A stretch of DNA of 64,000 nt from Abyssalbus ytuae (GCF_022807975.1 NZ_CP094358.1:4124171-4188170); one strand, 5' to 3'; positions 21,672 to 32,860 are shown, numbered from the stretch's first letter. Translations and numbers: made by a program. The notes: generated from the sequence alone by a model not told the origin.

Positions 21672-22284
21672 TAAATAAAATTCAATTCAATTACTGTTTG
21701 TAAATGTTAGAGTTTAATAATTTAGGTTGGCTATACACCAATTTGCTATGATGTTATTTGAATGATAATATTTATCATTATATTACTTTGCTTGGGTAAA
21801 AGTGAGAGTTACATTTGCTGATTTACTTTAAAAAGTTTTCTTCTGCAAAGCTACTTTTACAAAGTTTAATGGAACAATCCTTACACGAAACGACGGTAGG
21901 AGAGTAGTGTAATGCGTGTGGTATGGGAATATGTTACAAAATTAGATGCTTTTTGCTTCAGTGTAAGGCTCCCTAAAAACCGAACTGTTTAAAAATAGAA
22001 AATAGTTTTAGACTTAACCCAACTTCTTCATATAAGATTTTTCCTTATTTATAACAAAAGTTGCGTTTATGCACCCAATTTTGGGTGAGTAAACACAATT
22101 AATAAAGTTTATATATATTTAGCGGTCAGCAGATAAATCCACTATTCTGAACAAAACAGATAACGCTAAAATCCGAATATGCGTATTCGTCAATTGTCAT
22201 ATTTGCCAATTATAATTCTTTTCTTTATATTTGCACCATAACTTTAAAAGTGGCGACAACACTATAAATGCGGTACAAAATGTT

Positions 22285-22794
22285 ATGAATAAAGAACATA
22301 AAAAAAAATTCGCGAGTGAAAAAGAATTTTTAGCATTTGAATTTAAGTCAAAAGCAAGAATTATTGATGACAAAATGGTCGAGGTCATTGCGCCAGATGG
22401 AGAAGTTTTTTCAGTATTGGCTCCGATTGGGATTTACACCAATGAAGAAACTCGTCATTATCAACTACACGTAATAGAATATGTTTTTGACAAAAATTTC
22501 TCCGATGACAAGGAATTAATGACCCACAATATTTGGAAAGATTTATTTCTAAATCGCGTGTCATTTATGGGTATGAGTCCCGGAGACAAACAAGGAGAAA
22601 GAACTCGAATCGGAAAAAAAATTCGCCAAATTCGGGAAGAAAAGGGAATTGAAGGAAAAGACTTAGCAAGGTTAACAAATATAGACGCTGCAAATCTCAG
22701 TAGAATTGAACGAGGTAAATATTCCGTTGGACTTGATATTCTTTCAAAGCTAGCATCTGCCTTAGGATACCATATTGACATTGTACCAAATTAA
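22285..22794 (+). CDS. Protein with an N-terminal domain of unknown function and a C-terminal XRE-type HTH.
   Basis: C-terminus reads IRQIREEKGIEGKDLARLTNIDAANLSRIERGKYSVGLDILSKLASALGY. The ORF-track start lacks an ATG and overlaps a TATATTTG -7 promoter motif at about 22225, so the start is taken at M19 (22285). Confidence 0.55.
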   Translation: MNKEHKKKFASEKEFLAFEFKSKARIIDDKMVEVIAPDGEVFSVLAPIGIYTNEETRHYQLHVIEYVFDKNFSDDKELMTHNIWKDLFLNRVSFMGMSPGDKQGERTRIGKKIRQIREEKGIEGKDLARLTNIDAANLSRIERGKYSVGLDILSKLASALGYHIDIVPN

Positions 22795-22805
22795 ATGTAA
22801 TCAAT

Positions 22806-23804
22806 ATGGAAAATTTACTTGAAAATTATAATGGCATTCAAGAATGCTATTATAAAAACGAGCATTATTCTGTTCGAGATAATGGCGCTGTACTTCGGCA
22901 TACTCCTTATAATAATCGGACCAGACCAACAGATAACAAATGGACCTTTGGAAAATTAAACAACAGAACGGGTTATTTGGAAATCGCTTCTGTTCGTATT
23001 CACAGGATAGTTGCGACTGCCTTTCACGGAGAACCGCCAACAAAAGAACACGTTGTTGATCACATAGACACAAACAAACAAAATAATCGACCATACAATC
23101 TACGTTGGGTAACAAGATTAGAAAACATTTTACTTAACCCAATCACAGTGAAGCGAATTGAAATAGCTTGTGGATGTAGTGTTGAGGAATTTCTAACTGA
23201 CCCTTCAAAATTTCGTAATAAGTTTCAAGAACCAAACTATGAGTGGATGTGTGCAGTAAACATTCAAGAAGCACAAGCAAGTAAAGAAAGGTTATTGGCT
23301 TGGGCAAAAAGTGAAAAGCCATTACAAGGAGGTTCTTTAGGCGAATGGATTTATAATCGAAATATGTCAAATCAATTTACTGACTATATTGAAGAGAAAT
23401 TAGAGTTTATAAATTCTCTAACTCCAAATGCTGTTCAAAAAGCCAGAAATTGGAAAACACCAAGTGAATTTCCTTGTTGTCCTCAGGAAAATACTCATAA
23501 TCCAATGGCTGACTATATTGCAAACCTAAATATGGGGAATGTATTTTCTCGAAACCAATATACAAGTTCGATTATTGAATGTTTTGCAATTTCCAAAGAC
23601 GAAAACACATTGTGGATTATGTGCAAAAGTGGCGACGAAAACCCAATAAAACCTTATTCTTTGGCAGAGATAACCTATCAAAACGATGTTTTCGTTCATA
23701 ATAGTCTTGGAACTTTTTTCGAAAAAGGTGGAGCAGAAAAACAATTTACTCTTACACAAGGACTTGAATGGACAGGAGGTGAAACCATTGATGATTATTG
23801 TTGA
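22806..23804 (+). CDS. HNH endonuclease (HNH_3-type), a homing- or defense-associated nuclease.
   Basis: Motif EHVVDHIDTNKQNNRPYNLRWVTRLEN. Confidence 0.7.
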   Translation: MENLLENYNGIQECYYKNEHYSVRDNGAVLRHTPYNNRTRPTDNKWTFGKLNNRTGYLEIASVRIHRIVATAFHGEPPTKEHVVDHIDTNKQNNRPYNLRWVTRLENILLNPITVKRIEIACGCSVEEFLTDPSKFRNKFQEPNYEWMCAVNIQEAQASKERLLAWAKSEKPLQGGSLGEWIYNRNMSNQFTDYIEEKLEFINSLTPNAVQKARNWKTPSEFPCCPQENTHNPMADYIANLNMGNVFSRNQYTSSIIECFAISKDENTLWIMCKSGDENPIKPYSLAEITYQNDVFVHNSLGTFFEKGGAEKQFTLTQGLEWTGGETIDDYC

Positions 23805-24491: not shown

Positions 24492-26855
24492 ATGCAGACA
24501 GGTTTTTTTGCTTACGGCTCACAAATTCCTTCAAGTGGTGAGTGTATAGAAGAAGCGATCAAAATTATTAATAATGATGATAACGATGTGAAAATTGAAT
24601 CTTGGAGAAATTTGAAAGTATCTGGGTCATTAATAATTTCTAATATATTAGCTTCAATAAATAAATCTGATTTCTTCTGTGCAGATCTGACAGGGCTTAA
24701 TGATAATGTCTTATTTGAAATAGGATATGCTTTAGCAAAAGGTAAACCTCTTTATTTAATTAATGATACTACACAAGAAGAATCTTCAAGGAGATTTAGA
24801 GAATTAGGTCTTTTGTCTACTGTTGGATATTACCCATACACTAACACACAAAATATTGTTGATGGTTTTTATAGAATGACACCTTATGATCCAGTTGATA
24901 AATATTGGGAGGAACTGACTAAAACTTTACCAAATGATATAGAAAGGAAGGCTCTTTTAGTTTTAAATAGTCAGGTAGAAACAAATTATAATCTTGAAAT
25001 AATTAATCAAGTAGAATTTTTTAATCTACCAAATATTGTAGATGATGCTAGTGAAAGTATAGTTCAACCTATTAGTTGGTATATTGAGCAATTATATTCT
25101 GTACCAGCTGTTTTAGTACAATTCTCTTCACAGGCTAGATCAGGGTATGAAATTCATAACTCTAAATGTGCTCTTGTATCTGGAATTGCATTGGGTCTAG
25201 GATTAAAGCTTCAAATGATTGCTGAAAAACCTTATGGAGTGCCAATGGATTATAAGGAACTCCTTAAAAAATTTAGTAATAGAAAAGAGTGTGCTTTAAT
25301 AGTAACAAATTACTTAGGTGAATTAAGAGATGAAATAGCCTCTTTACTTATAGATAGTGATAAAAAAACAATTGAGAGGAGAACTAGAAGCGAACTCCAA
25401 AATGTCAATTTTGGTGAGGCGATTGCTGAGCACGAAAGTAATAATCTTTATGAATATTATGTGGATACATATCACACTCAACAACTAATTAAAAATGAAT
25501 ATAATATCGTAATTGGAAGAAAAGGTTCAGGGAAAACAGCAACGCTTTATTATTTAAAAGAAGACTTAGCCAGAGATGTAAGGAATAATGTGATACTAAT
25601 AAAGCCAATAAATTTTGAGGTTGATGGATTAATTTTACTTATGGAGGAATCTAATAGTGAATTTGAAAAAGGTTTTTTAATAGAAACAATTTGGAAGTTT
25701 CTGATATATACAGAAATTGCTAAATATTTATATTCAAAAACAAAAGATAAACCTCTCTATGCATTGACTGATGTTGAAACAAAATTTATAGACTTCATCG
25801 AAAAAAATAAGGCTATATATCTTACTGATTTCTCAACGAGGTTAGAAGAACAAATAAAAATTCTAAAGGAAAATAATATAAAAGATATTGGTGCAGGAAA
25901 TAATAAAGAATTTAGGTTAAAAGTTTCAGAGTTGCTTCATCAAAGTTCTATTTATGAAATGAAAAAGTATTTTGGTGATTTAATCCCTAAGAAACATAGG
26001 CTGATAGTACTTATTGATAACTTAGATAAGTCCTGGCGCAAAGATTCCAAAATTAATATTCTTAGCAAATATATACTTGGATTATTAGGGGTTTCAGGTC
26101 GGATTTTTCAAGAGTTATCTTATATAAAATCAACGAATAAAAATATTGCATTTCATCTTACTATATTTCTTAGAAGTGATATTTTCAAGCGTGTAATTTC
26201 TTTTGCGAGGGAGCCTGATAAAATTGAAGTTTCTAGATTAAAATGGGATGATCCAGAGATTTTGTTTAGAATTGTAGAAGATCGTTTTACTCAACTAAGT
26301 AAAGGGAAATATACTGGAGATGATCTTTGGGAAAAGTTTTTCGTGAAAAAGGTAAAATCTATGGATACTAAAGAATATATAACTAATAGTATTTTTCCAA
26401 GACCTAGAGATATAATTTATTTTTTCAAAACCTGTAAGGATATTGCTATTTCTAGGGGGCATAATATTATAGAAGAGAATGATGTTATTTCTGCTCATAC
26501 AGATTATTCAAGTTGGGTTTTCAAGTCAGTTTTAGTAGAAAATGGAATTACTTATAAACAGATGGAAGATTTTATGTATGAATTGATGACTAGTAATGAA
26601 ATCATAAGCATAGAACAAATAAATGAAAAGATGACTAATGCTAAAATACTTAATCATGACTCGGATGATCTAGATAGGTTTATTGATCATTTGGTAAATT
26701 TAACAATTATTGGAAGAGAAACAGAGAAAGGCAAATTCAGTTTTGAGTATGATGTAGATAATGCAAAAAAAATCAAAATATTGTCTAAAAAATTAGATTC
26801 CAATAGATTTAAAATTCATCCGGCGCTAGTACCATATTTAGAATGTAAAACCTAA
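24492..26855 (+). CDS. Candidate anti-phage defense protein. It fuses an N-terminal nucleoside 2-deoxyribosyltransferase-like or TIR-like domain to a central P-loop NTPase, with a C-terminal helical region.
   Basis: The N-terminal segment FFAYGS...FFCADLTGLNDNVLFEIGYALAKGKPLYLI matches the deoxyribosyltransferase/TIR-like signature. Walker A is IGRKGSGKTA, at about residue 345. Walker B-like is LIVLIDNLDKSW. It is flanked by an HNH nuclease and by repeats. Confidence 0.55.
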   Translation: MQTGFFAYGSQIPSSGECIEEAIKIINNDDNDVKIESWRNLKVSGSLIISNILASINKSDFFCADLTGLNDNVLFEIGYALAKGKPLYLINDTTQEESSRRFRELGLLSTVGYYPYTNTQNIVDGFYRMTPYDPVDKYWEELTKTLPNDIERKALLVLNSQVETNYNLEIINQVEFFNLPNIVDDASESIVQPISWYIEQLYSVPAVLVQFSSQARSGYEIHNSKCALVSGIALGLGLKLQMIAEKPYGVPMDYKELLKKFSNRKECALIVTNYLGELRDEIASLLIDSDKKTIERRTRSELQNVNFGEAIAEHESNNLYEYYVDTYHTQQLIKNEYNIVIGRKGSGKTATLYYLKEDLARDVRNNVILIKPINFEVDGLILLMEESNSEFEKGFLIETIWKFLIYTEIAKYLYSKTKDKPLYALTDVETKFIDFIEKNKAIYLTDFSTRLEEQIKILKENNIKDIGAGNNKEFRLKVSELLHQSSIYEMKKYFGDLIPKKHRLIVLIDNLDKSWRKDSKINILSKYILGLLGVSGRIFQELSYIKSTNKNIAFHLTIFLRSDIFKRVISFAREPDKIEVSRLKWDDPEILFRIVEDRFTQLSKGKYTGDDLWEKFFVKKVKSMDTKEYITNSIFPRPRDIIYFFKTCKDIAISRGHNIIEENDVISAHTDYSSWVFKSVLVENGITYKQMEDFMYELMTSNEIISIEQINEKMTNAKILNHDSDDLDRFIDHLVNLTIIGRETEKGKFSFEYDVDNAKKIKILSKKLDSNRFKIHPALVPYLECKT

Positions 26856-26914
26856 AGAAAAGGTAAGTTGAACCTATATATTATGTAAAATAGAACTTCA
26901 ATTTTTGGTAATGG

Positions 26915-27050
26915 CCTCAGAAAACTTTATTCATTTCATTCTTAATTGTTTTTTAAAGGAATTCATGAATCTTGAATTCGCAAGCTCATTCTGCGATTTG
27001 GTTAAAACAATCCGCCTTCGTTTCACAACGTCGGACAAGTAGGTGAGTGG
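26915..27050. repeat. Intergenic repeat of family R3.
   Basis: cctcagaaaactttattcatttcattcttaattgttttttaaaggaattcatgaatcttgaattcgcaagctcattctgcgatttgg...caatccgccttcgtttcacaac.tcggacaagtaggtgagtg. Near-identical at 44195-44330. Confidence 0.85.
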
Positions 27051-27477
27051 AGCGGTCATATTTTAGGGCATGGTAAATGCAATTATCCAGTGGATGATAG
27101 TATTTAACAGTGAGCTAATGCGGCTGGTTAACTTCAATCACCAGCGCGACAAGCCCATCCATCACTAAAAATGTACACTGTACATTTTCTTAACGCTCTG
27201 GAGTCTAAAATATAGTGGAACGAATGTTTTTATTGTTTCCAAAATAGAGAGAGCAGGGTGGAGGGTATAGTTCTCTTTTGAAGATTGTTAATGGAGTTGC
27301 CATGTAAGAAACGCAGAAGAAATTAATAATGAAGAAAATAAAATTCTATATTTGCAGCCTAATTAATTATTAAAAACAAAAAAGTAATATCTATGAGCAT
27401 ACTTAAATTACATAAATCGGGCGCTAAAACGCGACTTTCCAGGTTGATGTTCTAGGTAAAAAACTTTTTAAAAGATA

Positions 27478-27520
27478 GTAAAAGCGTCCAAAAAATAAGT
27501 TTTGGACGCTTTTTTTATAT
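27478..27520 (+). terminator. Rho-independent terminator.
   Basis: Perfect 11-bp stem agcgtccaaaa/ttttggacgct followed by a T-run. Confidence 0.7.
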
Positions 27521-27852
27521 TTTTTTTTCAAAATTAACAGATGCCTTTACATCGTGTAAGTTTTAGCTACATAACCAATAATCAAAGAGTTATCTAAACT
27601 CTGAATATCTGCACAAAAGCGGACCAGGATTTTATTGTTTTAACTTATTGATAATCAATAAAATAAATTTGAATTTTATTTGTGTAATTAAAAAAAGCAT
27701 TCCATATTTGCACCGCAATAAAGCAACAAAATAATATAAAAAACGAAGTACAATGTTCAGTTATCAATTAAACAAAAACATACAGAGAGAACCAGGTTCT
27801 CTTACTTGTTTGCTTCGTGACTTCTTTTATCATTAAATAAAATATTTTAATT

Positions 27853-27890
27853 ATATGAAAAGTAGTCCGAAGTTTTAAAGTTTCGGACTT
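27853..27890 (+). terminator. Rho-independent terminator.
   Basis: agtccgaa...ttcggact followed by ttttttt. Confidence 0.65.
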
Positions 27891-27995
27891 TTTTTATGGT
27901 TATATCTTCCTGAAATTTTTCCGAAAGACGATTTTAAAAATTAAGGAGTCAATAAATATTGACCTCCCTGAAATCAAACATCTCAAAATTAAATA

Positions 27996-29387
27996 ATGGG
28001 AAATAAATTAAAGGGGAAAGATCTAATCAAATTAGGTTTTCCCAGAAACAACAGCATCAATATTGCTTTAGGACAGATTAACAGATACTGTAAAAAAGAA
28101 AAGAAAGAAAATATATTGGAAGAAGCCAAAGAAGTGTTATTGGCTCCGGAAAAATTTCGAGGAAATGCTATTTGGGGAAAGGTAGCCGAAGGATTGGTAA
28201 AACCGGTGGAAGTTAGAAGGCATCAACTAAGAAATACAAGAGCTCCGTTTTTAATTTATGGAGAAAATGAGATTGACGAGCAAGCCAAATATCAGTTATA
28301 TGATGCTTTAAAATTACCCATAGCAGTGCAGGGAGCTTTAATGCCAGATGCACATTCGGGTTATGGTTTGCCAATAGGAGGGGTGCTTGCTACCGAAAAT
28401 GCAGTGATTCCTTATGGTGTGGGTGTTGATATTGGTTGCAGAATGTGTTTAACAGTATATCCGATAAAAGCCTCTTATTTAAAAGGGAAACAGCAGCAAT
28501 TGGAAAATATACTGGCAGAGCATACCAAATTCGGAATGAAGGAAACGCATGTTATAAAACACGATCATGAAATTTTTGAACGTGCGGAGTTTCAAGACAT
28601 TCCATTGATAAAAAGGTTGAAAACCAAGGCTTATGAACAATTGGGTACCTCAGGGAGTGGTAATCATTTTGTAGAGTTCGGGATTGTAAATATTACCGAT
28701 GAAAACAATGAATTACAATTACCTACAGGTGATTATGTAGGGTTGTTAACTCATAGCGGAAGCCGGGGTTTGGGAGCCAATATAGCGAAACATTATACTT
28801 ATTTGGCAACTAAGCAATGTCCGTTACCTAAAAATGTACAGCATTTGGCATGGTTGGATTTAAGTACCCATGATGGGCAAGAGTATTGGTTGGCTATGAA
28901 TTTAGCCGGGGATTATGCTAAAGCATGTCATGATGATATTCATAAACGAATAGGGAAATTACTGGGAGCAAAAGCAGTAGCGAAGATTGAGAATCATCAC
29001 AACTTTGCCTGGAAAGAACAAGTAAACGGGGTGGAAAGGATTGTACATAGAAAAGGAGCCACCCCTGCCAATAAAGGTGAGTTAGGAATCATTCCGGGGT
29101 CTATGACAACACCAGGATATATTGTTCGCGGTCTGGGTAATGCCGAAAGCTTAAATTCTGCTTCTCATGGTGCGGGGCGTTTACATTCACGAAGAAAATG
29201 TAAAGAAAAATTTACGAAAAGTGATATTAAACACCAATTGAAATTAAATGATGTAAGCCTTATTGGCGGTGGAATAGATGAGGCGCCTATGGCCTATAAA
29301 GACATTGAAAAAGTAATGGCAAATCAACAAGAACTGGTAGAGGTGTCAGGGACATTTATACCAAAGATTGTAAGAATGGATAAGTAA
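27996..29387 (+). CDS. rtcB: RtcB-family RNA 3'-phosphate ligase, of the PrfH-associated RtcB2 type.
   Basis: Motifs LMPDAHSGYGLPIGGV, GVDIGCRMC and NHHNFAW. The stop is 3 bp from the prfH start. Confidence 0.85.
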   Translation: MGNKLKGKDLIKLGFPRNNSINIALGQINRYCKKEKKENILEEAKEVLLAPEKFRGNAIWGKVAEGLVKPVEVRRHQLRNTRAPFLIYGENEIDEQAKYQLYDALKLPIAVQGALMPDAHSGYGLPIGGVLATENAVIPYGVGVDIGCRMCLTVYPIKASYLKGKQQQLENILAEHTKFGMKETHVIKHDHEIFERAEFQDIPLIKRLKTKAYEQLGTSGSGNHFVEFGIVNITDENNELQLPTGDYVGLLTHSGSRGLGANIAKHYTYLATKQCPLPKNVQHLAWLDLSTHDGQEYWLAMNLAGDYAKACHDDIHKRIGKLLGAKAVAKIENHHNFAWKEQVNGVERIVHRKGATPANKGELGIIPGSMTTPGYIVRGLGNAESLNSASHGAGRLHSRRKCKEKFTKSDIKHQLKLNDVSLIGGGIDEAPMAYKDIEKVMANQQELVEVSGTFIPKIVRMDK

Positions 29388-29389
29388 AA

Positions 29390-30082
29390 ATGAAAACTAA
29401 AATAATACAATTAACATCAGCAAAGGGACCCGTAGAATGTGCCTGGGTTGTAGCTAAAATACTAAAACTCTTCTTAAAAGAATTGACAGGTAATAAAATA
29501 GCCTATGAAATTTTGCATAAAGAAGATGGTTTAGAAAACGGTACGGTACAATCAGTAACTATAAAACTAAAGGGAAAGGAACTTTCGGAATTTTTAGAAG
29601 GTTGGTTAGGTACTATTCAATGGATAGGAACCTCAACTTTCAGGAAATATCATAAACGTAAAAATTGGTTTATAGGTTGTTATGAGTTGCATCAATATCA
29701 ACAAAAAACAATTAGTGAAAGTGAAATTCAATTTCAAGCTATTCGGAGTTCCGGTGCCGGGGGGCAACATGTGAACAAAGTAAGTTCGGCTATCAGAGCG
29801 AAGCATATACCAACAGGGGTTCAGGTTTTGGTGATGGATAACCGTTCGCAGCACCAAAATAAGAAGATTGCTATTGAGCGATTAAAGGAAAAAATTGCTG
29901 ATTATAATACAGGCCAGTTAAAAGAGGCTATAAAAAGTGAATGGGAAAATCATTTGAATTTGGAAAGAGGGAATCCTGTTCGAATATTTACCGGCTCAGA
30001 TTTTAAACAAAACAAAAGGGATAAATCTTTTAAAACGAAACGTAATCAGTTGAAAACCGATTTGCGAAAACAATTAGAATAA
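29390..30082 (+). CDS. prfH: Peptide chain release factor H-like protein (PrfH).
   Basis: GGQ motif (SSGAGGQHVNKV). It is short (230 aa) and lacks the codon-recognition domain, as PrfH does. Confidence 0.8.
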   Translation: MKTKIIQLTSAKGPVECAWVVAKILKLFLKELTGNKIAYEILHKEDGLENGTVQSVTIKLKGKELSEFLEGWLGTIQWIGTSTFRKYHKRKNWFIGCYELHQYQQKTISESEIQFQAIRSSGAGGQHVNKVSSAIRAKHIPTGVQVLVMDNRSQHQNKKIAIERLKEKIADYNTGQLKEAIKSEWENHLNLERGNPVRIFTGSDFKQNKRDKSFKTKRNQLKTDLRKQLE

Positions 30083-30083
30083 A

Positions 30084-30602
30084 ATGGGAGATTATATTAA
30101 TAATTATGTTTTTAAAGCATTAGAAAATTACCCTTATGATTTAGAAGAAGTTATGGAGGCATTGAATTATGCGCTGTCATATGATGAAAAAAACACCATG
30201 GCTTTAACTTTAAAGGGTAGAGTATATGCCGAGAAACTTTATAAATATGAGGAGGCAATTTCATATTACAAACAAGTTTTGGCTGAAAATATCAGTGCTT
30301 TTGAAGTGTATTCACCTTATATAAACACACTTTTTTGGAATGAAGATTATAAAGAGGCAGAACAGTTTATAAATTTTGCCCTAACCGTTAAAGGATCGGA
30401 CAAAGCACTGTTGTATTTAAAAAAAGCCATTTTGAATGAACAATTGAGAAAGTATAAGAAGGCTTTGAAATTATTAAAAGTGGCAGAAGAACATACTTTT
30501 AACAATGAATTTATAAGTACTATAAATTCTGAACGAGCCAGGATAAAGGGGAAGATCCCCAAGAAGGAAAATTCAGAACAAAAAAAACGAAGAAAAAAGT
30601 AA
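30084..30602 (+). CDS. TPR-repeat protein, third gene of the rtcB-prfH operon.
   Basis: Helical repeats rich in Tyr, Ala and Leu (ALTLKGRVYAEKLYKYEEAISYYKQVL...). Its start is 2 bp after the prfH stop. Confidence 0.55.
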   Translation: MGDYINNYVFKALENYPYDLEEVMEALNYALSYDEKNTMALTLKGRVYAEKLYKYEEAISYYKQVLAENISAFEVYSPYINTLFWNEDYKEAEQFINFALTVKGSDKALLYLKKAILNEQLRKYKKALKLLKVAEEHTFNNEFISTINSERARIKGKIPKKENSEQKKRRKK

Positions 30603-30799
30603 CATAATTTCAACTATGTAAGTTGATTGTGTATCCGGCAGGAGATACAAAGTATACGTTCTTTAAAATATCAGGCTGGTCTTGTTGTGTGTTTCTGTAT
30701 AGCACTATTGTATGGGGTATTACAAAGTTTGTATAATCACCTCATATACAACCTGACCTGGAGGTTTGGCTATTTCCAAAAATAGTTGCTAATCTATGT

Positions 30800-30828
30800 G
30801 TTGAGGGTTCGAATCCCTCCCGGGTACC
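30800..30828 (+). pseudogene. tRNA 3' fragment, T-arm plus acceptor 3' strand.
   Basis: gagggttcgaatccctc + ccgggtacc. No matching 5' acceptor is found upstream. Confidence 0.4.
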
Positions 30829-30838
30829 TGGTTTTCAG

Positions 30839-30901
30839 AGGCCCTGTAGCTCAAAGGCAGAGCAATAGATCGTTTCATGTGGGTTCGAGTCCCACTCCCA
30901 T
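30839..30901 (+). pseudogene. Truncated tRNA-like sequence. Acceptor, D-arm and T-arm are present but there is no anticodon arm and no complementary 3' acceptor.
   Basis: ggccctgtagctcaaaggcagagca...gtgggttcgagtcccac, about 62 nt. Confidence 0.35.
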
Positions 30902-30905
30902 AATT

Positions 30906-31007
30906 ACGGGATGGCGGAACTGGCAAACGCACTAGACTGTAAATCTAGCGAAACCGGCATTTTATGCCTCTTTTACCTGCACAGGTTCGAATCCTGTCGA
31001 GGCCACC
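30906..31007 (+). pseudogene. Degenerate class-II tRNA-Tyr(GTA)-like gene with an oversized variable region and non-pairing acceptor strands.
   Basis: D-arm gcggaactggcaaacgc, of the class II type. Anticodon arm ctagaCTGTAAAtctag. T-arm acaggttcgaatcctgt followed by cgaggccACCA. The variable region is about 32 nt and the 5' end gggatgg does not pair with the 3' end. Confidence 0.4.
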
Positions 31008-31012
31008 ATTTC

Positions 31013-31067
31013 AGGTCTTGTAGCTCAGTCAGGCAGAGCACTACACTCATAATGTAGGATTAAAGCT
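31013..31067 (+). pseudogene. 5' half of tRNA-Met/Ile2 (anticodon CAT), truncated after the anticodon arm.
   Basis: ggtcttg ta gctcagtcaggcagagc a ctacaCTCATAAtgtag, with no T-arm afterwards. Confidence 0.45.
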
Positions 31068-31441
31068 GAATCATCTTATAAAACTGATTTCCAGCCAGTC
31101 AGGCTGTAAAATTGACAAAAAGTAATTGTAAATCGGTTGTTATAGTATTTGTTGTAGCAACAATCTCTAATGTACTTTGAAATATTGGTATTGTTATTAT
31201 TGGAAATAACTACTTTTTTGGATTCAGATTTTAGCATAGTAACATATAAAAACTTTAATCTCATTCCTTAAAACCGGTTGTAGAACTTGTAACAAACTGA
31301 TGTTTCCGTATATGAAAGATGATTTGCTTTCACTGTTTTTTTAGAAAATTGTTTTATTAAAATATACTTTGGTAAAAGATCTATACCCGGGATTATTGAT
31401 CAAAGTAGGCAAGGTCTCCGTTACAGAAATTGTCATTATGA

Positions 31442-32536
31442 ATGTTTAATTTAAAAAGTAAAAAAATGAAAAGAGTAAGAATTAATGCGGGCAAAGTAGG
31501 TTTGATTTTCAAAAAAGGTGATTACCAACGGGTGATTACCAAAGGAACTCATTGGTTAGGATTTAATGAAAGTATATTAAAATATGATCTGACCAGGCCT
31601 TTTACAGCACCGGTAGCATTGGAACTCTTACTACATGACAAGGAGTTGGAGGCCATGTTGGATGTAATTGAAGTAAAGGATCATGAACTTGTGCTGGTTT
31701 ATGAAAACGGTAATTTTAAAAACATCTTGTTTGCGGGCCGTTATGTTTACTGGAAAGGATTGATTGATCGTGAATTTGTATATGCAGATCTAAGCAAAAT
31801 TTATATTACCGAAAGGATTGACAAGTCACTATTTAATCATTCTGAATTGGGTAAGTATATCAGGACTTTTGAGGTGGCTGCTTATGAAAAAGCAGTTTTG
31901 ATGGTAGATGATGTGTATACAAAAACCCTGGAAAGCGGTACCTACCGTTTTTGGAGAAATGATACCTCCATTAAAATTGCCAAGGCAGATTTGAGGCAGT
32001 TGCAATTGGAAATTGCCGGTCAGGAATTACTGACCAGGGATAAGGCAGCAATTCGTATAAACTTTTATACCCAGTATAAGGTTGTTGATATTGAAAAAGC
32101 TTTGTTGGATAACAGAGATTATGAAAAGCAATTGTATGTGTCAATGCAACTGGCCTTAAGAACTTTTATAGGAAACTACACGTTGGATGAGCTTTTGGAA
32201 CGTAAAGAAAGTATTGCGAACGCAGTATTGGAAAGCGTAAAGAACCACACAGTGAAATTAGGGGTGCGTGTGTTGAATTGCGGTATTCGTGATATTATTT
32301 TACCTGGTGATATGAAAGAGATCATGAACCAGGTATTGGTGGCACAAAAAAAGGCCCAGGCTAATATTATTACCCGCCGTGAAGAGACCGCCTCTACACG
32401 TAGTTTGCTAAATACTGCCAAACTAAAGGAAATGGAATATGTAGAGAAAATTGCTGATAAAATTGGTGAGATCAGTGTCTCTGGTGACGGGGGTATGATC
32501 AAACAATTAAAGGATATATTCTCTGTGAATAAATAG
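31442..32536 (+). CDS. SPFH/band-7 (stomatin-like) domain protein.
   Basis: The central region IRINFYTQYKVVDIEKALLDNRDYEKQLYVSMQLALRTFIGNYTLDELLERKESIANAVLE...VLNCGIRDIILPGDMKEIMNQVLVAQKKAQA follows the SPFH pattern. Confidence 0.6.
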   Translation: MFNLKSKKMKRVRINAGKVGLIFKKGDYQRVITKGTHWLGFNESILKYDLTRPFTAPVALELLLHDKELEAMLDVIEVKDHELVLVYENGNFKNILFAGRYVYWKGLIDREFVYADLSKIYITERIDKSLFNHSELGKYIRTFEVAAYEKAVLMVDDVYTKTLESGTYRFWRNDTSIKIAKADLRQLQLEIAGQELLTRDKAAIRINFYTQYKVVDIEKALLDNRDYEKQLYVSMQLALRTFIGNYTLDELLERKESIANAVLESVKNHTVKLGVRVLNCGIRDIILPGDMKEIMNQVLVAQKKAQANIITRREETASTRSLLNTAKLKEMEYVEKIADKIGEISVSGDGGMIKQLKDIFSVNK

Positions 32537-32860
32537 GTGGGTGTGATAATGATGCACTGGTTTTACAGCCAGTGCATTTTTTATTAATAAAAAGAGGAGT
32601 TCATATTAACCAAAAATGGGTTTTTCATATAATGGCAAAGCCTGCCTACAATGAATTTGTTCAGTCGGGTTGTATACAATTTGCTATGATGTTTTTAGAA
32701 TGATAAAATACTGCGCTGTCAGGAGATCAGGGTGGAGGAGTATACCTTATTTTCTTTTATGTAAAATTTAGATTCAACAGCTTTTATTTTGTTAAACTTT
32801 TTTTAAAAAATATCAAAATAAAAGTAATACTATTAATTTTGAATGCAATTATTTTAAATA

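Follow-up and report, generated by a model that had tools for sequence, protein, structure and literature searches.

A conserved RtcB-PrfH-TPR operon of Abyssalbus ytuae associated with a predicted multi-module tRNA-mimic RNA and an SPFH gene

We analyzed a 64,000-nucleotide (nt) stretch of DNA from Abyssalbus ytuae (GCF_022807975.1, NZ_CP094358.1:4124171-4188170), hereafter called the window in its full length, which encodes on its + strand an RNA ligase of the RtcB family, the release factor homologue PrfH and a small TPR protein in direct succession. An RNA or ribosome repair operon of RtcB and PrfH with a conserved TPR gene in third position is supported by the comparisons described below. 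The trio is preceded by a putative operator and a short leader open reading frame (ORF) with an intrinsic terminator, and it is followed by a non-coding region that probably folds into a structured RNA with tRNA-like modules, an SPFH/Band-7 gene and a further terminator. The features of this cassette are:

27641..27718 (+): putative operator and promoter module (~80 nt), found upstream of the leader in 69 loci
27644-27660 (+): operator palindrome TTATTGATAATCAATAA, accompanied by TTTG elements in the module
27703-27712 (+): Bacteroidota-type -7 box CATATTTGCA
27743..27896 (+): candidate leader attenuator, a conserved ORF with helices
27743-27748 (+): leader region A, ACGAAG
27753-27836 (+): 27-codon leader ORF MFSYQLNKNIQREPGSLTCLLRDFFYH
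27785-27803 (+): hairpin inside the leader ORF
27812-27823 (+): leader region B, GCTTCGTGACTT
27864-27889 (+): intrinsic terminator of the leader, then a T-run (terminator scan and comparative pairing)
27996..29387 (+): rtcB, RNA 3'-phosphate/5'-OH ligase, 463 amino acids (aa) (PF01139, 281.7 bits)
29390..30082 (+): prfH, release factor H of the PrfH-CT subfamily, 230 aa (TIGR03072)
30084..30602 (+): tpr, small TPR protein of 172 aa with a basic C-terminal tail KKENSEQKKRRKK (TPR_19)
30671..30787 (+): predicted 5' domain of the RNA with four helices (nhmmer, alignment fold), namely a long-range helix 30671-30685/30748-30761, a hairpin 30689-30705, a helix 30710-30747 and a hairpin 30768-30787 with the conserved loop CCAAAAA
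30794..30868 (+): tRNA-mimic module 1 with YrlA-like topology (partial YrlA match, covariation), comprising a 4-bp closing stem 30794-30797/30865-30868, T-arm 30803-30819, closed acceptor hairpin 30820-30846 and D-arm 30849-30863
30879..30968 (+): tRNA-mimic module 2 (Rfam tRNA match 30912-30997; coordinates read from the sequence), comprising T-arm 30879-30895, a short closed acceptor hairpin 30896-30911, a class-II-type D-arm 30914-30930, an anticodon-like arm 30932-30948 with the loop CUGUAAA and a variable-arm hairpin 30956-30968
30981..31089 (+): tRNA-mimic module 3 and a conserved hairpin (alignment A3; Rfam tRNA match 31014-31086); the module proper (30981-31057) comprises T-arm 30981-30997, a 7-bp closed acceptor 30998-31020 with the loop ACCATTTCA, D-arm 31023-31039 and an anticodon-like arm 31041-31057 with the loop CUCAUAA
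31069-31089 (+): the conserved hairpin, with the conserved loop UCUUAUAAAAC
31090..31441 (+): conserved non-coding stretch from the tRNA mimics to the SPFH start, 70-76% identical across genera (blastn, alignment A1)
31442..32536 (+): soluble SPFH/Band-7 (slipin-like) protein, 364 aa (PF01145, 100.2 bits)
32551..32578 (+): intrinsic terminator closing the cassette, a 12-bp stem followed by a T-run (terminator scan)

The three + strand ORFs, the RtcB motifs (ALMPDAHSGYG and VDIGCRM in the 463-aa protein) and the GGQ of the 230-aa protein (within SGAGGQHV) are all located where a preliminary description of the window had placed them. The junctions are tightly packed with zero overlap (TAA-AA-ATG between rtcB and prfH, TAA-A-ATG between prfH and tpr), and translational coupling of the three genes appears plausible. 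Active-site substitutions in the ligase were looked for by alignment to P. horikoshii RtcB (1uc2); the catalytic set is intact, with Asp95 and Cys98 in DIGC, Asn202/His203 in GSGNHF, His234 in THSGSRG, His329 in NHHN and His404 in SHGAGR all kept. The window RtcB carries an N-terminal extension of ~95 aa and scores below the NCBIfam cut-off of TIGR03073 (release_rtcB; 151.2 bits vs 271.8). It shares 54% full-length identity with the SPFH-linked RtcB of L137, which lies downstream of an SPFH gene, comes from metagenomic loci without PrfH and likewise fails TIGR03073 (139.6 bits). By these scores, the window ligase is not of the PrfH-associated RtcB2, or release_rtcB, type. What had been described as an RtcB2-PrfH module is thus retained as an RtcB-PrfH repair operon, with the RtcB2 assignment removed.

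The release factor exceeds the equivalog cut-off for PrfH (TIGR03072, 229.9 bits vs 166.65; NCBIfam) and contains the RF-1 peptidyl-hydrolase domain (PF00472, 88 bits). It lacks domain 1 of RF1/RF2, and its alignment to RF2 begins only at about residue 118-137. Its top match in the PDB is a PrfH of 231 aa, 9mor_A (E = 3.5e-82, residues 1-226 aligned), which we take to be Capnocytophaga gingivalis PrfH (CgPrfH), and the alignment takes in the basic C-terminal tail FKQNKRDKSFKTKRNQLK. E. coli PrfH (7sa4) gave a weaker match (E = 3.5e-43). The alignment to 9mor_A including the tail, compared with the score of the E. coli protein, places the window PrfH in the PrfH-CT subfamily. The TPR protein passes the Pfam cut-off of TPR_19 (28.8 bits vs 25) and has 278 homologues; an Abyssalbus ytuae protein matches it at 100% identity.

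To assess the conservation of the trio, we collected 80 loci in a PrfH-anchored genome scan and checked each by tblastn. They represent Tenacibaculum, Polaribacter, Maribacter, Aquimarina, Zobellia, Kordia and Cellulophaga, with others in Marinilabiliaceae and Reichenbachiella. The order RtcB-PrfH-TPR is kept in 77 of them, with a full-length RtcB at 53-90% identity; the association of the three genes is far beyond chance, and the TPR gene, which had been noted as a coupled third gene, is a regular member of the operon. A same-strand SPFH gene follows the trio in about 40 of the 80 loci. An SPFH-anchored metagenome scan provided 80 further loci, 59 of which include at least 900 nt upstream of the SPFH gene.

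The tRNA-like pieces start 200 bp past the TPR stop codon, with a first T-arm at 30803. They had been described as a cluster of tRNA halves at this distance and as a graveyard of tRNA genes. The pieces are indeed there, but the graveyard is replaced by a conserved, covarying RNA tied to the SPFH gene. ARAGORN reported zero tRNAs or transfer-messenger RNAs (tmRNAs) in the entire 64-kb window, which argues against both ordinary tRNA genes and a permuted tmRNA in the region; a G3:U70 pair is not conserved in the acceptor stems. Rfam tRNA matches are barely over threshold (30912-30997, 35.8 bits; 31014-31086, 32.4 bits). The spacer between tpr and the SPFH gene (30603-31441) nevertheless retains 70-80% DNA identity across genera (blastn, alignment A1), and an nhmmer profile of its first 200 nt matches 41 genome loci. 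In every one of these, the 5' domain lies 400-750 nt 5' of the SPFH gene on the same strand, and it is present in 45 of the 59 SPFH-anchored metagenome loci. Even in Marinilabiliaceae, where the RNA and the SPFH gene are on the opposite strand upstream of rtcB, the arrangement of the two is kept. No Rfam family matches the 5' domain.

Minimum-free-energy folding of 30655-31100 as a single sequence failed to reproduce the tRNA-like arms (z = -1.9), and the structure was therefore derived by comparison. RNAalifold on 34 sequences predicted 56 pairs, and compensatory double changes were seen at 30 of these. The proposed partners pair in 98.1% of cells, a share that drops to 35-48% if they are shifted by 1-3 columns, and 0 of 500 shuffles reached the observed values. 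Compensatory changes occur at all six acceptor pairs and three of the five T-arm pairs of module 1, and the acceptor hairpin of module 2 covaries between genera (alignment A1). In module 3 they affect 12 of 21 pairs (alignment A3, 23 sequences), with strong covariation of the acceptor. Taken together, the data point to a structured RNA of ~430 nt or more, in which the 5' domain is joined by three tRNA mimics, each circularly permuted and closed at its acceptor stem. Each module would correspond to a tRNA shape permuted at the variable region, in which the 3' acceptor strand pairs with the following 5' acceptor strand. This permuted layout accounts both for the apparent halves and for the failure of tRNA finders. 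Approximately half of the last-module acceptor loops open with ACC(A), followed by an A/U-rich spacer. The remaining stretch, 31090-31441, belongs either to the RNA, as its 3' part, or to the SPFH mRNA, as its 5' untranslated region. An origin of the tRNA pieces as attachment-site remnants of integrating elements was rejected on the grounds of the covarying closed acceptor hairpins and their fixed order upstream of the SPFH gene. Just ahead of the 5' domain, a stem-loop GTATC-CGGCAGGA-GATAC (30631-30648, +) aligns with an intact T-arm GTACCAGTTCGAATCTGGTAAGAGGTAC in Aquimarina loci and may be the sole truly decayed tRNA piece of the region.

The gene content around the RNA varies in a way that separates its stable from its optional parts. 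Some SPFH-anchored metagenome loci show the order of the window (order A). In at least 11 others (order B), operator, leader, TPR gene, tRNA genes, RNA and SPFH gene occur without rtcB and prfH, and the 27-codon leader is then found ahead of the TPR gene. In order C, tRNA genes, RNA and SPFH gene are followed by RtcB downstream, with additional genes for TPR proteins, RlaP nucleotidyltransferases, an Rnl2-type ligase, an RNaseH-like protein, an AAA ATPase or Ro60; in one locus the TPR gene lies between SPFH and RtcB. SPFH is linked to RtcB in three distinct gene orders. From orders A to C, the stable core is the tRNA-mimic RNA with the SPFH gene, to which RtcB is recurrently attached, while PrfH and TPR are optional. 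The linkage of the TPR gene to the unit of SPFH, tRNA mimic and tRNA array appears at least as tight as that to prfH. Extra RNA-repair genes near the RNA and SPFH core of sister loci are situated at L117:3565-9969, L158:9811-11630, L162:4807-6412 and L010:7525-8070; they include, besides the Rnl2-type ligase and the AAA ATPase, two RlaP genes, the RNaseH-like protein (PF04308), Ro60 (TROVE plus vWA) and an RNase T-type exonuclease.

Between the TPR gene and the RNA, many relatives carry tRNA genes on the + strand: at least three in 24 of the 77 PrfH-TPR loci, at least eight in 15, and 16 at most. The largest of these arrays has the conserved order Ser-Ser-Cys-Tyr-Trp-Asp-Pro-Glu-Lys-Leu-Leu-Arg-Gln-His-Phe-Arg, and metagenome arrays reach 22 tRNA genes (array-bearing loci include L027-L079; an example is L079:7896-9175). 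With zero tRNA genes found by ARAGORN, the window contains no such array. The content across the 77 loci is strongly skewed, with Cys, Asp, Gln, Pro, Leu, Arg, Tyr, Glu, Ser, His, Phe and Lys frequent, whereas Gly, Val, Ile and Met occur once or twice, and Ala and Thr never. This set presumably resembles the targets of known anticodon nucleases. In about one third of the related genomes, an array and a second copy of the operator/promoter module lie between tpr and the RNA.

Upstream of the trio, we infer that 27641-27718 acts as an operator. The window holds a single copy of it; in 29 loci a second copy follows the TPR gene directly before the tRNA array. An operator shared by cassette and array argues for a shared repressor and for co-regulation of the two. 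The leader that follows is always directly 5' of the first cassette gene. Its ORF is present in all 60 distinct loci, begins with ATG and spans 26-28 codons (exactly 27 in 54 loci), with L21, D23 and F24 of the peptide invariant; the other two frames close early. Three mutually exclusive leader helices are conserved. Helix A:B (27743-27748/27813-27818) is paired in 95% of cases, and one of its pairs is CG in 44 loci, UA in 16 and unpaired in none. Helix C:D, the terminator at 27864-27889, is paired in 91.6%, with three pairs changed on both sides and 6 of 11 pairs never varying. Helix B:C, in which region B pairs with the 5' arm of the terminator, is paired in 94.5% with few compensatory changes. 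The distance from region B to the terminator is 44-52 nt.

Leader-peptide attenuators are known from trp-type and antibiotic-sensing leaders. The window leader shares with them a short ORF, three exclusive helices and an intrinsic terminator right before the operon. It differs in that none of its amino acids is specified by a series of consecutive codons; the signal proposed here would be general ribosome stalling. An enrichment of the leader in the amino acids of the array tRNAs was considered and dropped, as it amounts to 23 of 27 codons in the window but only ~13 of 27 in Maribacter-type leaders. Upstream of the operator, a separate micro-ORF unit (27349-27520, +) consists of a -7 box TATATTTGCA, a 20-codon ORF MSILKLHKSGAKTRLSRLMF (27393-27455) and a strong terminator (27480-27513); this micro-ORF with its terminator is kept in five loci (L006, L007, L012, L038 and L059).

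In full, the cassette would run from operator/promoter through the 27-codon leader with its terminator, rtcB-prfH-tpr, the structured RNA and the SPFH gene to the final terminator. No strong terminator is predicted between the TPR and SPFH genes, and one follows SPFH, which makes a single long transcript plausible and is consistent with such a transcript in the window genome. We consider a cassette for the repair of damage to the translation machinery the best explanation of this arrangement and assign the full proposal a probability of roughly 0.7. RtcB would reseal 2',3'-cyclic-phosphate/5'-OH breaks in rRNA or tRNA, and PrfH would release peptides from damaged or non-stop ribosomes, both by analogy with relatives for which these activities have been shown. 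PrfH-CT relatives carry out peptide release on ribosomes that have stalled after 16S rRNA cleavage or on non-stop mRNA (PMC12829566), and the biochemistry of RtcB2-PrfH has been described (PMC9304027, PMC9223846). The TPR protein may act as a scaffold, and the SPFH protein with the tRNA-mimic RNA may constitute a Band-7/b7a-tRNA cofactor module serving as scaffold or decoy for tRNA-directed damage or repair. Two gates would control expression, a repressor at the shared operator and the leader-peptide attenuator. A ribosome reaching the leader stop codon would mask region B and allow the terminator to form; with a ribosome stalled earlier, region B would be available for pairing with the terminator's 5' arm, and read-through would follow.

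We also put forward, as a speculation with well below even odds, a stall-sensing "first-aid kit". In this extension, the attenuator would turn on the ligase, the dual-function release factor, spare tRNAs and the mimic RNA; RNase P would cut at the ACCA acceptor loops, and the RNA with SPFH, perhaps joined by the TPR protein, would form a ribonucleoprotein acting as a decoy for toxins that cleave tRNAs or as a platform on which broken tRNAs are offered to RtcB. If this were true, the long-predicted Band-7/b7a-tRNA module would gain a concrete RNA architecture, an input for its regulation and a function open to testing, and it would be tied mechanistically to the tRNA-array stress regulon of cyanobacteria.

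Several points weigh against the repair proposal. The workings of the cassette in Abyssalbus ytuae are read from sequence alone, the repressor is deduced from its operator, and the ends, processing and co-transcription of the RNA are deduced solely from the lack of a predicted terminator. Repair of 16S rRNA is an extrapolation here, as the ligase falls outside the PrfH-associated RtcB2 type. Covariation support for helix B:C is weak since the helix is mostly invariant: it varies at two pairs, and 92 of 500 shuffles reach its pair-count measure. The invariant L-R/Q-D-F motif of the leader could reflect a functional micropeptide instead of RNA pairing. The equation with b7a-tRNA follows a second-hand description, and only parts of the RNA are tRNA-like here. 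Finally, one lineage carries a solitary TPR orthologue (72% identity; L081-L083:10001-10552) among unrelated genes, with no rtcB, prfH, RNA, SPFH gene or leader near it.

Four other explanations were weighed. The preliminary description had seen an RtcB2-PrfH-TPR module in a defence island beside decayed tRNAs, countering nucleases of phages or of abortive infection. PrfH and RtcB are present and intact, the upstream neighbour joins a weak TIR-like match to an Sll1717-family ATPase, HNH and HTH genes lie nearby, the flanks of the cassette differ between genomes as is typical of islands, and ARAGORN finds no intact tRNA. However, PADLOC run on ten proteins detected no defence system (best match 17.7 bits, to TIR, plus homing-endonuclease and generic HTH matches), and none of the 21 flanking window ORFs recurs beside the cassette in any of the 80 loci, so that the proposed island placement is not borne out. 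The ligase also falls under the release_rtcB cut-off, a scan for the conserved 23-nt RNA pattern in viral contigs returned no match, and pseudogene decay cannot be reconciled with a region that is conserved between genera and shows compensatory changes in each helix. We regard this explanation as distinctly unlikely. An even less probable one is that the RNA is a true YrlA-type Y RNA whose Ro60/Rsr partner is encoded elsewhere, as in the Salmonella rsr-yrlBA-rtcBA arrangement. The module order (variable region, T-arm, closed acceptor, D-arm) is identical, partial RF02553 matches reach 28-41 bits, Ro60 (TROVE plus vWA) lies beside SPFH in two loci (L117 and L128), and YrlA of M. smegmatis is an RNase P substrate to which CCA is added (PMC4201824). 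Against this stand matches below the gathering score of 69 and confined to the tRNA-like part of the model, the absence of the motif GNCGAAN0-1G from 30603-31441 and of Ro60 from the window and the 80 PrfH loci, and SPFH, not Ro60, as the constant partner.

More credible, although still clearly a minority view, is that the conserved non-coding stretch serves chiefly as a 5' leader of the SPFH mRNA acting in cis, a tRNA-mimicking sensor controlling SPFH translation or stability instead of a free-standing RNA cofactor. The RNA is on the same strand 400-750 nt upstream of SPFH throughout, conservation extends to the SPFH start codon, and no strong terminator is predicted in between. On the other hand, acceptor loops starting with ACC(A) suggest RNase P cleavage and 3' processing into pieces, some Tenacibaculum loci have an own -7 box upstream of the RNA (alignment A1), and the literature model, as summarised in the Discussion of 10.1101/312249, is a trans-acting cofactor. 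Somewhat less likely than this is a functional micropeptide, regulatory or toxin-like, encoded by the 27-codon ORF, with the terminator merely ending a small gene. The invariant L-R/Q-D-F with L21, D23 and F24, a recurrent K-E-P-G-S-F consensus in mid-peptide and the second conserved micro-ORF with terminator just upstream (27393-27513) would fit such a gene. Yet region A shows perfect covariation with the base that varies in the Arg/Gln codon, the complementarity of region B to the 5' arm of the terminator holds at 94.5% of positions, ORF length and the distance from B to the terminator are fixed, and the unit is always found directly upstream of the first cassette gene; these features favour attenuation.

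The cassette belongs to an operon type that is already known: PrfH-CT, RtcB, a TPR accessory and Band-7 with a tRNA-like RNA are all in the literature. In E. coli ATCC 25922, RtcB2-PrfH constitutes a ribosome repair module (PMC9223846, PMC9304027, PMC13166195). The window operon likewise places a GGQ-bearing PrfH equivalog beside an RtcB-family ligase, with presumed peptide release followed by RNA resealing. It differs in a ligase of another lineage (TIGR03073, 151 vs 271.8 bits; ~95-aa extension), in the basic C-terminal tail of PrfH and in the additional TPR protein, leader attenuator, tRNA-mimic RNA and SPFH protein, to which relatives add tRNA arrays. The PrfH-CT subfamily has been characterized biochemically and structurally (Tian et al. 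2026, PMC12829566; PDB 9mor, 9mq4); its members measure 225-250 aa and end in a basic tail related by homology to the C-terminal tail of CgPrfH, and >90% of them occur in Flavobacteriia. The window PrfH, with 230 aa, a tail aligned to 9mor_A and a source in Flavobacteriia, agrees with this description, which makes no mention of TPR, tRNA genes or gene neighbourhood. A TPR gene and a Pol-beta nucleotidyltransferase accreted around RFH-RtcB have been reported by Burroughs and Aravind 2019 (PMC6514570, section 2.4), who proposed the TPR accessory as a scaffold by analogy to Rqc1. The TPR gene of the cassette similarly stands beside the two-gene core, but it also persists without rtcB and prfH alongside leader, tRNA array, RNA and SPFH.

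For the RNA, the nearest description is that of a Band-7 protein and a tRNA associated with band-7 (b7a-tRNA) beside RtcB and occasionally Rsr, given in the Discussion of Wang et al. (10.1101/312249) as a summary of Burroughs and Aravind 2016; there, b7a-tRNA is characterized as "strongly resembling an authentic tRNA". The window has a Band-7 protein near an RtcB ligase and an adjoining tRNA-like non-coding RNA, with Ro60 an occasional neighbour (it adjoins SPFH in L117 and L128), and the pair of RNA and SPFH fits the predicted, unvalidated b7a-tRNA as summarised there. Compared with that summary, the window RNA is multi-domain, with a covarying 5' domain and two to three permuted modules instead of a single tRNA look-alike. 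Its kinship with YrlA appears real. RF02553 gives partial matches at 30795-30870 (33.2 bits, module 1, model positions 23-88) and 30957-31072 (30.2 bits), and at 28-41 bits in L117 and L137; no score reaches the 69-bit gathering threshold, and the matches are confined to the tRNA-like portion of the model (~21-89). Membership in YrlA was rejected, given these scores, a Ro-binding motif (GNCGAAN0-1G) that is missing from 30603-31441, and the absence of Ro60 homologues from both the window and the 80 PrfH loci. YrlA of the rsr-yrlBA-rtcBA type (PMC4201824, PMC7790460, RF02553) shares the permuted order of T-arm, closed acceptor and D-arm and the RtcB neighbour, and that of M. smegmatis, with a 7-bp acceptor, is cleaved by RNase P and acquires CCA (PMC4201824). 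The window RNA differs in lacking the Ro-binding helix and motif and a Ro60 gene, in its sub-threshold score, and in its tandem modules and extra 5' domain.

The closest functional parallel of the whole assembly is the TrcR repressor regulon of Anabaena, in which a silent long tRNA array, rtcB and the slipin gene alr0740 are induced by translational stress (PMC8421152, PMC10272220). In both cases a tRNA array shares promoter/operator sequences with rtcB and an SPFH gene is included. The flavobacterial parts, in contrast, are physically clustered and extended by PrfH, TPR, the tRNA-mimic RNA and the leader attenuator; the operator is a palindrome, whereas that of TrcR consists of direct repeats, and the window genome has lost or never had the array that Anabaena carries as its L-array.

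Four features appear undescribed in a limited literature search: the permuted multi-module layout of the RNA, the shared operator, a leader attenuator of fixed length and the linkage with tRNA arrays. A predicted but never validated band-7-associated RNA would thereby gain a covariation-supported structure with exact coordinates, and the cassette a plausible sensing mechanism in the shared operator and leader-peptide attenuator. Its linkage to tRNA arrays mirrors the cyanobacterial stress regulon of tRNA array, rtcB and slipin, and the roles of SPFH, tRNA mimic and silent arrays in RNA repair become testable in culturable marine Flavobacteriaceae.

The cassette is common to Flavobacteriaceae and related Bacteroidota, self-contained and portable in variable surroundings. 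In the window, ~480 nt of non-coding DNA (26860-27340) separate the micro-ORF unit from an Sll1717-type ATPase gene; they contain no ORF, have no Rfam match at E up to 10 and gave one short blast match in the loci (L055). The ATPase gene (24492-26855, +) encodes a 787-aa P-loop protein of the Sll1717 family (NF047389, 294.5 bits) with a weak nucleoside deoxyribosyltransferase-like or TIR-like match at its N-terminus. It could be a defence-type gene and has no counterpart in any of the 80 related loci. Further upstream (22231-23804, +), a gene with a Cro/C1-type HTH precedes an HNH_3 endonuclease gene. The tRNA-array regulon of Anabaena includes the HNH endonuclease all8564 (PMC10272220), but a link of the window HNH and HTH genes to the cassette is unlikely because no operator copy is present near them in the window. 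No hydrophobic segment is visible by eye in the 364-aa SPFH protein.

Other PrfH loci show further variation. Some contain an RNase T-type exonuclease or uncharacterised ORFs inside the operon. In many, the gap between leader and rtcB accommodates an extra ORF of 223-277 aa without a Pfam match, which often overlaps the rtcB start and does not occur in the window (L079:3694-4527; L010:2123-2809; L084:4963-5634). In Polaribacter cellanae and Urechidicola croceus, a second RtcB paralogue (~28% identity) and a divergent WYL-domain regulator lie a few kb from the cassette (L084:11236-13884 and L085:1885-4438).

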